DNA of 6,515 nt from a virus (lineage: Duplodnaviria > Heunggongvirae > Uroviricota > Caudoviricetes): IMG/VR virus record IMGVR_UViG_2529293223_000008; one strand, 5' to 3'. Positions 1 to 5,621 of the stretch are shown piece after piece; positions within the stretch are counted from its first letter, which is position 1; the number at the start of each line of letters is the position of its first letter. A program made the translations under genes and the position numbers. The notes under the pieces are model-generated. The model did no database searches. It was not told the origin of the DNA and was given only the letters and a program-made list of their open reading frames with translations.

Positions 1-375
1 GGTAATCCATCCAGGCCTGTTGTTGCAGAGCTTGGCGATGATTCAGGCTGGCATTTTTTCAGCCAGAGGAATACAGATAACAGCATCACGTTCGCCGTAA
101 ACGGACAGGTAATTCCGTTAAATTACGGAAACTTTGATGCCCGCTATAAACATCGAACTGAGGGGGTACAGGATGTGCGATATGGCCATGAAATGTATTA
201 CAACCCTGGCAGCAACACCGTTTCATGGACGTTTCGCTCACCTTCGGGACACGGGCTGTCAGGGATATCGATATCGGATACCGGCCGTAACTCAGCGGAT
301 AACGTCAACGGTGTGTATTACCGACCGCTGCAAAAACTGATTAATGGCACCTGGTATAACGTAGCGAGTATTTAA
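1..375 (+). CDS. phage tail fibre protein, C-terminal fragment (5' end lies outside the window)
   Basis: Frame 1 is open from base 1 to the TAA at 373-375 (124 codons, no in-frame stop). The listed ORF 175..375 is only the internal-Met tail of this frame. The stop is 1 nt before the start of a tail-fibre-assembly gene, the usual stf-tfa arrangement. The C-terminus is rich in Gly/Ser/Asn/Tyr/Trp. Product call rests on context and composition, not on a motif I can name. Confidence 0.6.
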
Positions 376-376
376 T

Positions 377-904
377 ATGATGCACTTAAAGAACATAAAA
401 GCGGGTAACGCTAAAACGCCGGAACAGTATGAGTTAACAAAGAAGCACAGAGTCATCTGGCTTTACGCTGAAGACGGGAAAAACTGGTATGAGGAAGTGA
501 AGAACTTTCAGCCAGATACAATAAAGATTGTTTACGACGAAAATAATATTATTGTTGCCATTACCAAAGATACCTCAACGCTTAATCCTGAAGGTTTCAG
601 CGTTGTCGAAGTTCCTGATATTACCGCCAACCGACGTGCTGATGACTCCGGGAAGTGGATGTTTAAGGACGGAGCTGTGGTTAAGCGGATTTATACGGCA
701 GGCGAGCAGCAACAACAGGCCGAATCACAAAAGGCCGCGTTACTTTCCGAAGCTGAATCAGTCATCCAGCCGCTGGAACGCGCTGTCAGGCTGAATATGG
801 CAACAGACGAGGAACGCACACGACTGGAAGCATGGGAACGCTACAGTGTTCTGGTCAGCCGTGTGGACACTGCAAAACCTGAATGGCCACAAAAGCCCGG
901 GTGA
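377..904 (+). CDS. tfa: phage tail fibre assembly protein (Tfa family chaperone)
   Basis: 175 aa ORF. N-terminus [21 protein letters not shown]...[13 protein letters not shown]...FQPDT and C-terminus ...[30 protein letters not shown] follow the conserved pattern of enterobacterial Tfa proteins as I recall them (TfaE/TfaQ/TfaR, Mu U-like). Start is 1 nt after the upstream fibre gene stop. Length is typical for Tfa. Confidence 0.85.
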
Positions 905-1040: not shown

Positions 1041-1784
1041 ATGTGGTTTCCGGCAAAACTGATGCTTCCGACAGGTAATATCACCCCCATAACATGTTCA
1101 GCTATGGCCGTACATCCGTGGGATGTTGAAGCGGGGCACATTACGCCAGACGGTGCGTATTTAAGCCCCGTCAACGCAATAAACCACCTTAACAACAAAC
1201 TCCCGGGCCTGACCGAAAACAGCGATATCGCCATCATAATGGTAACAGGCAGCAATAATAACGATTTTATTCGTCAACTGTCAGCACTGGCAGACACACT
1301 CCCTTTACCCACTCTGACGCAGACGCTAAGACGCGCAAGAACACAGCTCACCCAGGCAATCACCAGAATGCAAATCCCGGCGACACCACAGAACGGACTG
1401 CCCGCTCCACAACCACTTATTGCCAGCACACTACAGAACAGCATCAGTAACCACACCGCGCTTAACGCTATGAAGGCCGAAGGGCTGAACTCTGTCGACT
1501 CACTGAAAAACGCGTTATCCGGTTTTCAGGCACAACGTCAACGGTTGCAGCAACAGATAATCGCTGAACTGGCAGGAGCAGGCGATAAAGTGGCAAAAGC
1601 ATTTGCGTTCGTGCACACCGGCGACGCCGTTTTAGCCCGCCGGGAAATGATGAAAAATATTCCGCACCCCACAGCTTCACTGACGTATGCACACCTGTTC
1701 GCAGGCGATCTTTCCGGGATGCTGAACTGGATAACGAAGGCAGAAAATGAGCCAGAACACGACAACGCCACTGCTGGCCCTTAA
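1041..1784 (+). CDS. hypothetical protein, 247 aa, first gene of a three-gene operon; function unknown
   Basis: Long ORF (track lists 846..1784). I place the start at ATG 1041 because AAGAGAGG (1026-1033) lies 7 nt upstream as a Shine-Dalgarno, and the 846 start would overlap tfa with no ribosome-binding site. ATG 1062 is a possible alternative. No catalytic or nucleotide-binding motif recognised. Ala/Leu/Gln-rich, probably helical C-terminal half. Confidence 0.6.
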   Translation: MWFPAKLMLPTGNITPITCSAMAVHPWDVEAGHITPDGAYLSPVNAINHLNNKLPGLTENSDIAIIMVTGSNNNDFIRQLSALADTLPLPTLTQTLRRARTQLTQAITRMQIPATPQNGLPAPQPLIASTLQNSISNHTALNAMKAEGLNSVDSLKNALSGFQAQRQRLQQQIIAELAGAGDKVAKAFAFVHTGDAVLARREMMKNIPHPTASLTYAHLFAGDLSGMLNWITKAENEPEHDNATAGP

Positions 1785-2313
1785 TGGTCAGATAATCCCG
1801 CTAAAACGCTTAAGTGTCAGCGTGAAGCTGACCATCAAAGACAAAGACGCTTCCGGAAAATCCTCATCAACAGCGACTTCAGAACAGGGTGTAAAAGCCA
1901 AGGAGCTGCAGATTTCCGGACTGATTCCGTTCACCCAGCCGGAAGCACTCACACGCTTATTTCGTCTGGCTGAAGCCAGAGCCGCTAACGGTGCACAACA
2001 GGTTTACCGCATCGCCAACATGGATGCTAAAGCGGTCAATATGAAGCAAGGGATTTTTTCCGGTGCCGTGGGCGCAACTCCTGAAACAGGCCTGATGGCA
2101 TGGAAAGTTGACTTCACTCTGAAAGAAAAACTCAGCAGTGCCGAAAAGGCGACAGGACGCGGCCCGGCTGGCAATCAGAGTGCTGAACAGCACGCACAGG
2201 CCGTCAAATCAGGTGGCAAAGGCGAAAAAAACGAAGAGCATGGCTGGTTCTGGAAAATGTCAGACAAACTCAATAACTGGATAGGCCCGGCAGGCAATGA
2301 AACCAATTCGTGA
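1747..2313 (+). CDS. hypothetical protein, 188 aa, Lys-rich and hydrophilic; function unknown
   Basis: ORF with GAAGG (1736-1740) 6 nt before ATG 1747. Overlaps the upstream gene by 38 nt and the downstream gene by 17 nt, consistent with translational coupling. Ser/Thr-rich N-terminus, Lys/Gly-rich middle, Trp-containing C-terminal tail (HGWFWKMSDKLNNWIGP). No recognisable motif; DKDASGKSS is not a valid Walker A. Confidence 0.6.
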   Translation: MSQNTTTPLLALNGQIIPLKRLSVSVKLTIKDKDASGKSSSTATSEQGVKAKELQISGLIPFTQPEALTRLFRLAEARAANGAQQVYRIANMDAKAVNMKQGIFSGAVGATPETGLMAWKVDFTLKEKLSSAEKATGRGPAGNQSAEQHAQAVKSGGKGEKNEEHGWFWKMSDKLNNWIGPAGNETNS

Positions 2314-3985
2314 TCTCTGCATTAACGGCAGGCGTTATCCTGTCGTGGAAGAAAACATCATGTTGCGTCTCAACGGCGCGGGAACCGGCTTTATCACCAT
2401 TAACGCCGCCGACAATACTCCCCCGCTACGCGGCAAACCCGTAGAGCTGTCCATCGGTTACAACGATCAGCCTGTAAAGTGGTTTTCGGGATATGTGGAA
2501 AGTGACAGTTGTACAGGCAGAGGGCTGCACAAGCTGATGGTGCGCGAAGCTGCTGCTATTCTGCAATACCCGCTCAACATCTCCATGCAGCATCCGACGC
2601 TGAAACAGGTCGCAGGACACATTGAAGGCAATACAGGTTTACGCATACAACTCCCGAAGGCAGGCTACACCACCACTCCGGTCCCTCATCTGACCCACAA
2701 TGGCAACGGTTATCAGCTGATGGCCATGCTTGGCCGCATATTCAGTATCCCGGATTACGTCTGGTATCCGTCGGTTGACGGCATCATCTACGCCGGAAGC
2801 TTTGCTGACTGCCGTTTTACAAAACGCCCTGCCAGATTGCCGGTCGATATCACCAGAGGTGATCACGGAGCAAATGGCTGGACAATACAGACGATTCCCA
2901 TGATGCGCCCCGGCGTGGTCATGAACGATCACCGTATAAATCAGGTACAGCTACAGGGCGACAGCATGATCATTAGCTGGAGTGATGGCCGTCAGTCGCC
3001 AGTACAACGCCAGATCGAAACCCTTTACCCCGAGATAGGCAACAAAACCCACCTTCCACGCATGGGACGCGTGATCTCACCAACTGAAAACACAACCCAG
3101 GGGGATTTGCATGATGAATTTCGCCCACGCTACGCCGTCAATGTGCAGTTGCTCGACGAGAACGGCACCCCCGATAAGAACACACCGGTATATAACGCCG
3201 TCCCCGTTCCTGTGCCAATGGCCGGCAATGAATCCGGGATATTCCAGTACCCGCCCCCAGGAACCATAGTTACACTGGCCCACGTTGACGGCAGGCCGGA
3301 TAAACCCATCATCACCGGCACTCACGCCAGCGGCCAGAGTCTGCCGGGAATAAAGCCCGGCGAACAACTACAACAGCAACGCGCAGAGGTATTCCAGCGT
3401 GTGCATACAGATGGCACATGGCAGCGTGAAACCGATCAGGTTATTCGTGAGAAATCCACCGACCGCATCATCCAGAACACAACGGAAACGCGCACCAGTA
3501 CCACTCGTAATATTACCGTAAAGGCCAACAACACCATAACGGTGCTCGGCACTCATAAGCTGATGAGCGGCCACATACAGCACATCGCAGACGGTGACTA
3601 TGCCGTAGCCGCCACGAAGAAACTGATACAGCACGCCGACAGCGCTGAACTCGACGTTACTCACCAGTGGCAAACCAGCACAGAAAGCACCACCCACAAT
3701 GTGGCGAAAACGCTGGAAGAAAAGATTGGCCGGATTAAAAAATCCGTCGCTGGCCAGATGCAACAGATCATCGCCCCGCAGGTCTGGTTTGGCAGCAATA
3801 CCATCAACACACTTAACCTCATGCTGGATCTTTGCGACACCGTTCAGCAACTGGCGCAGCTCACCGCACAACACACTCATACCAACAACGGGTCGTCACA
3901 GCCCACCAACAGCGGCAGCATAGACACGGTGGCATCAATGGCAGGCAACCTGAAAGCGAAGTACAGTACCGTGATTAAGCAGTAA
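2297..3985 (+). CDS. baseplate hub-spike-like protein (gp27/gp5- or VgrG-like architecture, inferred), 562 aa
   Basis: Long ORF. Residues about 255-345 (nt about 3059-3331) carry an OB-fold signature: RYAVNVQLLDENG...PMAGNESGIFQYPPPGTIVTLAHVDGRPDKPIITG, which parallels the conserved VgrG/gp5 block (RVKVxFxWD...WAG...PRIGxEVxVxFxxGDPDRPIITG) as I recall it. DGRPDKPIITG is at nt 3287-3319. Residues about 385-470 show Thr/Val-rich short beta-repeats (NITVKANNTITVLGTH...) like a spike beta-helix. The N-terminal 250 aa loosely fit a hub (gpD/gp27-like) pattern. Start could instead be ATG 2360 (Met22), which has GGAAG upstream. The ORF call is firm; the family call is from memory. Confidence 0.7.
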   Translation: MKPIRDLCINGRRYPVVEENIMLRLNGAGTGFITINAADNTPPLRGKPVELSIGYNDQPVKWFSGYVESDSCTGRGLHKLMVREAAAILQYPLNISMQHPTLKQVAGHIEGNTGLRIQLPKAGYTTTPVPHLTHNGNGYQLMAMLGRIFSIPDYVWYPSVDGIIYAGSFADCRFTKRPARLPVDITRGDHGANGWTIQTIPMMRPGVVMNDHRINQVQLQGDSMIISWSDGRQSPVQRQIETLYPEIGNKTHLPRMGRVISPTENTTQGDLHDEFRPRYAVNVQLLDENGTPDKNTPVYNAVPVPVPMAGNESGIFQYPPPGTIVTLAHVDGRPDKPIITGTHASGQSLPGIKPGEQLQQQRAEVFQRVHTDGTWQRETDQVIREKSTDRIIQNTTETRTSTTRNITVKANNTITVLGTHKLMSGHIQHIADGDYAVAATKKLIQHADSAELDVTHQWQTSTESTTHNVAKTLEEKIGRIKKSVAGQMQQIIAPQVWFGSNTINTLNLMLDLCDTVQQLAQLTAQHTHTNNGSSQPTNSGSIDTVASMAGNLKAKYSTVIKQ

Positions 3986-4117: not shown

Positions 4118-4133
4118 GCCCGTCGCGACGGGC
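4118..4133. other. perfect 16-nt GC-rich palindrome GCCCGTCGCGACGGGC (hairpin; possible minus-strand terminator or protein-binding site)
   Basis: Seen in sequence: fully self-complementary. On the minus strand it is followed by a moderately U-rich tract (TTTCGTCTGGTT); on the plus strand by ATTCCCCC. Sits in the gap between the operon and IS150. Confidence 0.35.
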
Positions 4134-4172: not shown

Positions 4173-4175
4173 CGC
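4173..4175. repeat. target-site duplication, left copy (CGC)
   Basis: CGC immediately outside the left IS150 end, identical to 5619-5621 outside the right end. A 3 bp duplication is expected for IS3-family elements. Confidence 0.8.
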
Positions 4176-4199
4176 TGTACTGCACCCATTTTGTTGGAC
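4176..4199 (+). repeat. IS150 left terminal inverted repeat
   Basis: TGTACTGCACCCATTTTGTTGGAC matches the reverse complement of the right end (TGTACTGACCCCAAAAAGTTGGAC) at about 18 of 24 positions. Confidence 0.85.
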
Positions 4200-4222
4200 G
4201 ATGAAATGGAATAGCCCCTGAT

Positions 4223-4744
4223 ATGTCAAAGCCAAAATACCCTTTTGAAAAGCGCCTTGAAGTAGTGAATCACTACTTCACTACTGATGATGGTTACAGG
4301 ATCATCTCGGCACGTTTTGGTGTCCCCCGAACCCAGGTCAGGACATGGGTTGCCCTCTATGAAAAACATAGAGAAAAAGGCTTAATTCCCAAACCTAAAG
4401 GTGTTAGTGCTGATCCAGAGTTGCGTATTAAGGTCGTGAAAGCTGTGATCGAGCAGCACATGTCCCTTAATCAGGCTGCTGCTCACTTTATGCTTGCTGG
4501 TAGTGGTTCTGTAGCCAGGTGGCTGAAGGTTTATGAAGAGCGCGGAGAAGCTGGTTTACGCGCGCTCAAGATTGGCACCAAAAGAAACATTGCAATATCA
4601 GTTGATCCAGAAAAAGCGGCATCAGCATTGGAGCTGTCAAAAGACCGACGCATTGAGGATCTTGAAAGGCAAGTTCGATTTCTTGAAACGCGGCTTGTGT
4701 ATCTAAAAAAGCTGAAAGCCTTAGCTCATCCCACGAAAAAGTGA
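4223..4744 (+). CDS. insJ: IS150 OrfA (InsJ), helix-turn-helix DNA-binding transposase component
   Basis: 173 aa ORF, MSKPKYPFEKRLEVVNHYFTTDDGYRIISARFGVPRTQVRTWVALYEK..., recognised as IS150 InsJ. Contains the frameshift window near its 3' end. Confidence 0.95.
   Translation: MSKPKYPFEKRLEVVNHYFTTDDGYRIISARFGVPRTQVRTWVALYEKHREKGLIPKPKGVSADPELRIKVVKAVIEQHMSLNQAAAHFMLAGSGSVARWLKVYEERGEAGLRALKIGTKRNIAISVDPEKAASALELSKDRRIEDLERQVRFLETRLVYLKKLKALAHPTKK
4705..4711 (+). other. programmed -1 ribosomal frameshift heptamer A-AAA-AAG (gives the InsJK fusion transposase)
   Basis: In the insJ frame the codons are CTA-AAA-AAG. A -1 slip enters the insK frame, which is open through the GTG at 4741 to the stop at 5592. 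The IS3-family frameshift mechanism is established knowledge. Confidence 0.85.
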
Positions 4745-5592
4745 AAGTACTCAACGAGCTAAGGCAGTTTTATCCTCTTGATGAGCTTCTCAGGGCTGCG
4801 GAGATACCGCGCAGTACGTTTTATTACCATCTAAAGGCTCTCAGCAAGCCTGACAAGTATGCGGACGTTAAAAAGCGTATTGGTGAGATTTATCATGAGA
4901 ATAGAGGCCGATACGGATACCGTAGGGTAACGCTGTCTCTTCATCGAGAAGGGAAACAGATTAACCATAAAGCTGTTCAGCGCCTGATGGGAATCCTCTC
5001 ACTTAAGGCAGCGATTAAGGTCAAGCGATACCGCTCTTACAGAGGAGAGGTAGGGCAAACCGCCCCCAATGTTCTCCAAAGAGATTTCAAGGCTACGCGG
5101 CCAAACGAGAAGTGGGTTACCGATGTTACTGAATTTGCAGTCAATGGGCGCAAGCTGTATTTGTCTCCAGTAATAGATCTCTTCAACAACGAAGTTATTT
5201 CTTACAGCCTTTCGGAAAGACCAGTGATGAACATGGTCGAGAATATGCTCGATCAGGCATTCAAAAAGCTTAATCCTCACGAGCATCCTGTTCTGCACTC
5301 TGACCAGGGATGGCAGTATCGTATGAGAAGATATCAAAATATCCTTAAAGAACATGGTATTAAACAAAGCATGTCCAGAAAAGGCAATTGTCTGGATAAT
5401 GCTGTGGTGGAGTGTTTCTTTGGAACCTTAAAATCGGAGTGTTTTTATCTTGATGAGTTCAGTAATATAAGCGAACTGAAGGATGCTGTTACGGAATATA
5501 TTGAATACTACAACAGCAGAAGAATTAGCCTGAAATTAAAAGGTCTGACTCCAATTGAATATCGGAATCAGACCTATATGCCTCGTGTTTAA
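4741..5592 (+). CDS. insK: IS150 OrfB (InsK), DDE transposase catalytic domain; made mainly as an OrfAB fusion by -1 frameshifting
   Basis: 283 aa [34 protein letters not shown]...[18 protein letters not shown], recognised as IS150 InsK. The track's initiating Met is a GTG overlapping the insJ stop, so the true N-terminus is supplied by the fusion. Confidence 0.95.
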
Positions 5593-5594
5593 CT

Positions 5595-5618
5595 GTCCAA
5601 CTTTTTGGGGTCAGTACA
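5595..5618 (-). repeat. IS150 right terminal inverted repeat
   Basis: Reverse complement reads TGTACTGACCCCAAAAAGTTGGAC, pairing with the left repeat. The element ends in CA. Confidence 0.85.
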
Positions 5619-5621
5619 CGC
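5619..5621. repeat. target-site duplication, right copy (CGC)
   Basis: CGC immediately outside the right IS150 end, matching 4173-4175. Confidence 0.8.

Follow-up and report, generated by a model that had tools for sequence, protein, structure and literature searches.

The 562-amino-acid (aa) protein encoded by the open reading frame (ORF) at 2297-3985 of IMG/VR record IMGVR_UViG_2529293223_000008 (plus strand, ATG start) is very probably the central hub-spike complex, carried on one polypeptide, of a contractile-tail prophage of the HP1 branch of the Peduoviridae. The window, by which we mean the whole 6,515-nt stretch of caudoviral DNA analyzed here, is the right end of this HP1-like, P2-family prophage. 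The assignment is based on orthology and synteny, on the folds predicted for the hub and OB domains, and on a profile that resembles the spike region of VgrG and gp5; from these we infer trimer assembly, metal binding, a folding back of the last helix, and a role in piercing the host envelope. An initial annotation, made from the letters of the sequence without database searches, had described a compact VgrG/gp5-type protein with several unusual traits; it had the folds right, and the traits turn out to be standard for HP1-type phages.

Orthology and gene order

The whole chain belongs to a well-populated family. PHROG 2258 (“baseplate protein”) matches residues 1-561 over profile positions 1-544 of 544 at E 1.3e-195, and in tblastn the protein is 33-45% identical, along 100% of its length, to proteins of HP1, HP2, K139, Kappa, phiO18P, ESSI-2, and others. 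On these comparisons we regard the protein as the orthologue of HP1 orf35 and K139 orf39. A profile of 90 family members retrieved 923 cluster representatives at E<1e-3 from 1.84 billion proteins; with this and the full-length PHROG match, the features observed lie far beyond chance. Two further homologue searches, one with the alignment and one with distant phage orthologues, widened the set modestly, the matches listed falling within Enterobacterales, Vibrio, and Aeromonas.

Gene order tells the same story. The prophage of Escherichia coli RMDEC332 runs from ogr, portal, terminase, scaffold, capsid, small terminase, head completion, gpR-like, and gpS-like genes through sheath (DUF2586), tube (HP1 Orf24), lysis genes, chaperone, tape measure, and DUF2590 to baseplate J, gpI-like, fibre, fibre assembly (Tfa), orf33, orf34, and hub-spike genes, which is the order of orf19 to orf35 in HP1. 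The late operon ends alike, with fibre, Tfa, orf33, orf34, and the hub-spike gene last, in the window, the E. coli prophage, HP1, K139, phiO18P, and ESSI-2. The gene does lie after the fibre end and Tfa, as the initial annotation had pointed out; since HP1, K139, phiO18P, and ESSI-2 share the order, this is the normal HP1-type arrangement and not the oddity it was taken for. A second, canonical hub/spike pair had also been suggested as something to look for in the same prophage. No further hub- or spike-family match was found among the tail-module genes of the E. coli prophage, so the 562-aa protein gene is its sole hub or spike gene. That outcome, a sole spike gene with ordinary synteny, is the one the initial annotation had named as speaking against its own case for unusualness.

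Predicted architecture of hub and spike

An AlphaFold2 monomer model built from a 90-sequence alignment has a mean predicted local distance difference test score (pLDDT) of 76.9, rising above 90 for residues 1-230. In this predicted structure the N-terminal part takes the hub fold of T4 gp27, Mu gp44, and P2 gpD. Structural comparison scores for the modeled hub were 19.8 with the gp44-like protein of MuSo2 (3cdd; 213 residues aligned, 2.4 Å), 18.7 with Mu gp44 (1wru), 17.6 with E217 gp41, 17.5 with type VI secretion system (T6SS) protein c3393, 15.9 with the pyocin R2 hub, and 15.0 with Afp8. Because the aligned part amounts to about two-thirds of a gp44-size hub, the domain is called compact, in keeping with the shortened hub first proposed for the N-terminal 250 aa. 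With the full-length model, the top Foldseek matches were collinear and came from the Anabaena contractile injection system (CIS; E 7e-18), AlgoCIS (8e-18), VgrG (2.5e-17), PVC8, and Afp8 (6e-16); the Mu gp45 spike was matched at E 5e-4, and matches among BFVD structures were gpD, 43 kDa tail protein, and XkdQ proteins.

After the hub, the model has strands at 255-262, 280-286, 299-303, 324-329, and 337-342, the five that an OB-fold should have. The two motifs on which the initial annotation had based its VgrG/gp5-type OB-fold are present where it placed them: RYAVNVQLLDENG spans aa 278-290 and GIFQYPPPGTIVTLAHVDGRPDKPIITG spans aa 314-341. At the level of the family, Phage_base_V (PF04717) is found at E<0.01 in 26 of 39 diverse relatives, several of which exceed the cut-off (25.7-28.0 bits). 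Comparison of the single sequence with the Protein Data Bank (PDB) by phmmer gave marginal similarities (E 0.1-0.35, to VgrG, PVC8, and Afp8), so a family profile was needed. A spike profile built from 39 diverse C-half proteins matched VgrG 8gra_I at E 1.6e-10 over residues 414-607, from the OB-fold through the beta-helix, and other VgrGs at E 1e-7 to 1e-4; for the VgrG OB-fold in the PDB the range was E 4e-6 to 1.6e-10, and the T4 gp5 beta-helix was reached at E about 0.01.

The Thr-rich region at aa 363-470, presumed to form an intertwined trimeric beta-helix, is modeled in the monomer as an extended chain with pLDDT 73-85. Gp5_trimer_C was matched by 4 and DUF2345 by 5 of the 39 relatives. 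Threonine makes up 20% of aa 385-470 against 10% of the whole protein; valine is not enriched there, and neither a DNA tandem-repeat test nor a hydropathy periodicity test over the segment was positive. The Thr/Val-rich short repeats first described are thus Thr-rich without being Val-rich, and, with both tests negative, the case for repeats comes down to the profile match to the VgrG/gp5 beta-helices.

Between OB-fold and Thr-rich region, aa 354-362 (PGEQLQQQR, window 3356-3382) show the highest conservation in the 90-sequence alignment, nearly all residues being invariant, while AlphaFold pLDDT falls below 50. One possibility is that the segment contacts another subunit or a partner, an interface beyond the reach of a monomer model.

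The C-terminal tail and the putative apex

The last 92 aa, first noted as a Gln/Leu-rich tail of about 90 residues, are moderately rich in Q (11%), T (11%), and L (9%). Helices are predicted at 474-483, 505-524, and 539-557, and hydropathy has a strong period of 3.5 residues at 470-495 and 503-525. The 3-4 hydrophobic spacing of the amphipathic helix ahead of H526 would put this residue at the next core position. Across 39 diverse relatives G499 is invariant, N504, H526, and H528 are nearly so, and both histidines of the HxH motif are present in 94%, the two exceptions having hydrophobic residues instead (LTV in place of HxH in P0392 and P0420). In 37 of the 39, stand-alone spikes included, the alignment preserves the register of the pattern VWxGS...N(helix)...HxH...P...(helix). 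The tail is not a lineage-specific appendage.

According to a study of the P2 apex, an Fe ion is caged there by the HxH motifs of three chains, and the presence of HxH close to the C-terminus of a spike marks an Apex domain (bioRxiv 10.1101/2023.02.25.529910). As judged from the alignment, a conserved HxH of this kind occurs near the C-terminus of the window protein, at the same relative place as HTHKHPG in the P2 gpV apex, LHTHKHPGDSGGTTGSPL. The Pfam family PF18946, “GpV Apex motif,” matches three relatives at the aligned HxH stretch with 32.3 (P0326), 22.9, and 17.5 bits (cut-off 20.8). The window protein departs from gpV in three respects: it has a post-HxH loop shorter by about 12 residues, an amphipathic helix leading up to the motif, and, beyond the motif, a conserved helix of about 20 residues for which gpV has no counterpart. 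The tail would thus comprise a coiled coil, a histidine-cage tip, and a fold-back helix.

In P2 gpV, phi92 gp138, and Mu gp45 the apex is all-beta. A tentative and rather doubtful extension of our reading is that the HP1-type tip is an apex variant unlike any solved structure, in which a coiled coil at about 471-525 leads to the HxH cage and then to the fold-back helix 539-557, giving a helical point like a six-helix bundle, and that the family is also a natural series of hub/spike/tip fusions and fissions. The tip is modular within the family: in Canoevirus gp41 (Vibrio phage 1.202.O, L003 9609-10504) a Cys-rich tail, GVCTGASICPFMGKPH, replaces the helix-HxH module, and a 65-aa ORF follows.

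Weighing the alternatives

The name “type VI secretion system Vgr family protein,” given by the NCBI Prokaryotic Genome Annotation Pipeline (PGAP) in four E. coli assemblies, would make the gene an orphan T6SS VgrG, or else the spike of a non-phage CIS, lying by chance beside phage tail genes. An architecture collinear with VgrG, Afp8, and PVC8 and weak matches to TIGR01646 and TIGR03361 speak for this, but those matches fall far under the cut-offs (29.8 bits against 121.8 and 23.3 against 186.35). The gene overlaps orf34 in a late operon with portal, terminase, capsid, sheath, tube, and fibre genes, its full-length orthologues are the terminal late gene of the isolated phages HP1, HP2, K139, Kappa, phiO18P, and ESSI-2, and it co-occurs with phage genes. 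T6SS core genes, which the initial annotation had not seen either, are absent from the window, and its proposed check for T6SS loci found none within 20 kb on either side of the orthologous E. coli locus, where extracellular CIS (eCIS) genes are likewise lacking nearby. On the TIGR scores and the phage operon context we reject the orphan VgrG, which we hold to be extremely improbable. It is also improbable, if somewhat less so, that the C-terminal 90 residues or so are an adaptor- or effector-like extension of the kind appended to evolved VgrGs, outside the spike proper. The tail is helical, as the initial annotation recognized when it made this suggestion, unlike the solved tips of gpV, gp5, and Mu gp45; its PDB similarities are insignificant coiled-coil matches (SipD, E 0.18), and C-termini vary in the wider family, where Cys-rich tails and an 875-aa member with a long extension occur. 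Nevertheless, a tail that keeps its register and its near-invariant G499, N504, H526, and H528 even in stand-alone spikes, that in relatives matches the Apex motif above cut-off, and that offers in some 90 aa no enzyme signature and in Pfam no more than a chance coiled-coil match reads better as part of the spike; the helical character stands, the appended adaptor or effector is unlikely.

Whether the protein is still used is a separate matter. The gene could be a relic in a prophage that is defective in this genome, its product not used for virions whatever the ancestral role; we lean against this without thinking it far-fetched. The closest complete E. coli prophage spans ogr and portal to the hub-spike gene and seems to lack integrase, repressor, and replication genes, with IS600 at its left edge, so that the element there is probably defective; the gene is rare (6 of 5426 complete E. 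coli genomes), and in the window the insertion sequence IS150 sits 190 nt past its stop codon. Against a relic, the ORF is intact and 99.8% identical across those E. coli genomes, and all late genes are annotated as intact; the argument in any case bears on present use and not on what the protein is.

Several results weigh against the hub-spike assignment itself or limit it. Pfam matched none of 37 N-half relatives, nor the N-terminal half of the window protein, Phage_GPD (PF05954) and other hub families included; the N-half profile had no significant sequence match in the PDB, and hhalign of the 90-sequence family profile with single-sequence P2 gpD gave a plausible but not significant alignment. 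With no significant PDB or Pfam match for this half, the hub at aa 1-230 is a call from structure prediction. With PF04717 the window protein scored 20.8-22.1 bits, just under the cut-off of 23.8; hhalign with single-sequence P2 gpV was not significant, and no solved structure is closer in sequence than E 1e-10. Model quality is low at 345-362 and 459-497, and a trimeric helix is beyond what a monomer model can represent. PF18946 did not match the window protein's own tail even at E<=10, which is put down to the shorter loop after HxH. HxH is followed by 34 residues, where in gpV the chain ends after 12, and so may form an internal cage and not the extreme tip. Finally, given the missing early genes of the closest E. 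coli prophage, the protein may no longer be used.

Proposed role and relation to known systems

The established roles of gp27-gp5, gpD-gpV, gp44-gp45, and VgrG suggest how the hub-spike protein would act. The assembly would be a trimer centered on the tail axis. Its hub ring, contributed by residues 1-230 of each chain, would fit the three-fold spike to a six-fold tube and to the baseplate wedges, and residues 233-345 would make an OB-fold collar below it. Residues from about 363 to 470 of the three chains would intertwine into a triple beta-helix needle. The last 90 or so would wind into a coiled coil; at its end a histidine cage (3 × H526/H528) would bind a metal ion and seal the tip, and the final helix would pack back on the cage. 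The hub would seed tube assembly together with the tape measure and the orf34 product, which the ACA1 authors regard as gpU-like (PMC10612066). When the sheath contracts, the capped spike would be driven across the outer membrane of the host, with the tube behind it.

The closest counterparts, HP1 orf35 (P51739), K139 orf39, Kappa kp45, and ESSI-2 ADX32369, have the same domain order, the same HxH, and the same last-gene place after orf33 and orf34; there is no difference of substance, the window protein belonging to an E. coli/Shigella/Salmonella sub-clade and having a slightly longer beta-helix region than the HP1 and K139 proteins. P2, with gpD as hub and gpV as spike (the latter with an Fe-loaded Apex), uses two proteins from two operons where a single chain serves here, and the R2 pyocin likewise has a hub and a spike. 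The P2 hub has 387 aa against 230, and sequence similarity is undetectable with single sequences. In the all-beta gpV the chain stops 12 residues past HxH, whereas here one helix stands before the motif and another, of some 20 to 25 residues, after it. In Mu, hub gp44 (1wru, 3cdd) and spike gp45 (9ki1_V) are separate proteins, and about two-thirds of gp44 has a counterpart in the window protein. T6SS VgrG, Afp8, PVC8, AlgoCIS Alg8, and Anabaena All3320 place hub, OB-fold, and beta-helix in one chain in the same order as here, but the present gene lies in a phage with capsid genes instead of a secretion or eCIS locus and scores under the VgrG NCBIfam cut-offs. Its hub is about 150 aa shorter than that of VgrG, with the OB-fold motif at about residue 310 instead of about 410 (the protein is indeed short for a VgrG, as first remarked), and it has its own HxH tip where VgrG-type proteins have a PAAR cap.

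Fused and split members of the family

Full-length representatives are a minority among the matches listed, most of which are single halves: N-half proteins of 223-245 aa cover profile positions 1-228, and C-half proteins of about 295-390 aa cover 235-538. Adjacent genes encode the two halves in Canoevirus (gp40 and gp41) and in Pseudoalteromonas phage ACA1 (gp48 and gp49, “cell puncturing device”), members of the same family with two genes instead of one, and the split point in both is exactly the hub/spike boundary at aa 230-235. Canoevirus gp41 differs further from the window protein in the tail described above. In the GenBank notes for ACA1, gp48 is linked with the N-terminal domain of HP1 orf35, and gp49 both with the C-terminal one and with P2 gpV (3QR8); the opening words of the note on gp47, the orf34 homologue, give its size and syntenic position as similar to gpU before qualifying this with a “but.” According to the ACA1 paper, HP1-type tail proteins, the cell-puncturing device among them, relate to P2 at the HHpred level only, and the P2 gpU baseplate protein was found in ACA1 by HHpred (PMC10612066).

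Neighboring genes and the prophage

Features of the window are collected in Table 1.

Table 1. Features of the window and predicted segments of the 562-aa protein
Feature	Position	Strand	Remarks
Tail fibre gene, 3′ end	1..375	+	Reading frame continuous with fibre CDS in NZ_CM177021
Tail fibre assembly protein (Tfa)	377..904	+	Pfam Caudo_TAP PF02413 E 7e-37; phrog_136 E 1e-79
HP1 orf33-type protein	1104..1784	+	phrog_1677 E 2e-41; PGAP start identical in E. coli orthologue
HP1 orf34-type baseplate complex protein	1747..2313	+	PF25759 HP1_ORF34 E 7e-49; phrog_1398 E 3.5e-55
Probable fused hub-spike gene	2297..3985	+	PHROG 2258; overlaps orf34-type gene
Predicted hub domain	2297..2986	+	aa 1-230; compact version of gp27/gp44/gpD fold
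Predicted spike N-terminal helix and five-strand OB-fold	2993..3331	+	aa 233-345; includes GIFQYPPPGTIVTLAHVDGRPDKPIITG
Thr-rich region, presumed intertwined trimeric beta-helix	3383..3706	+	aa 363-470; profile match to VgrG/gp5
Amphipathic helical segment, presumed trimeric coiled coil leading to tip	3707..3871	+	aa 471-525
HxH motif H526-T-H528, presumed metal-binding histidine cage of spike apex	3872..3880	+	
C-terminal helix after apex motif	3911..3967	+	aa 539-557; pLDDT 75-87; conserved in family, absent from P2 gpV
IS150 (IS3 family)	4176-5618		orfA 4223-4744, orfB 4741-5592
hok/gef-family toxin ORF	6375-6515		Annotated in E. coli orthologous locus; just outside prophage end

The start of the hub-spike gene overlaps the orf34-type gene by 17 nt. 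The orf33-type protein has no Pfam or PDB match, and no PDB sequence relatives were found for the orf34-like protein. Between the Tfa stop codon and the start of the orf33-like gene lies a gap of 200 nt (905-1103), in an operon whose genes otherwise overlap; a GTG-initiated ORF from 846 would close it, and homologues favor the start at 1104.

Six complete E. coli genomes share the locus, with 98.5-98.9% identity across the window. IS150, flanked by a 3-bp target duplication (CGC at 4173-4175 and 5619-5621), is absent from all six. To the left of ogr and portal, NZ_CM177021 (L001 1-3200) has a PIN-domain gene, a helix-turn-helix gene, a partition-gene fragment, and IS600.

Past the hub-spike gene, a GC-rich hairpin, GCCCGTCGCGACGGGC, lies at 4118-4133. 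Because its T-run is on the minus strand only, it resembles a terminator for transcription arriving from the right and not for the late operon; in K139 an annotated terminator directly follows orf39. Promoter and terminator scans gave nothing beyond chance, and an Rfam scan of the window at gathering thresholds had no match, with no Sok or other RNA.

Public records disagree on names. The record for the exact protein, WP_000802706.1, reads “hypothetical protein [Shigella boydii],” and most cluster members likewise go by “hypothetical protein”; RefSeq phage records have “baseplate protein,” and some newer PGAP records of the family use the T6SS Vgr name. In many database entries the start is set 16 codons downstream, giving 546 aa.

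Significance

This kind of protein is already known, and it appears in databases as “baseplate protein,” “Vgr family protein,” or “cell puncturing device”; mildly new are the helical context of the HxH tip and the finding that a single lineage has both fused and split forms. Beyond annotation the result carries little weight: it fixes a function for a protein that is mostly “hypothetical” in NCBI records, and it indicates that the PGAP name has the architecture right and the system wrong. For the phages themselves, the HP1 branch of the P2-like group would unite the roles of P2 gpD and gpV in a single chain, whereas close relatives have a gene for each. A helical HxH tip, if real, would be one more solution for sharpening the needle of a contractile tail, and the series of hub, spike, and tip fusions and fissions, if true, would offer a model for the origin of VgrG-like fusions.

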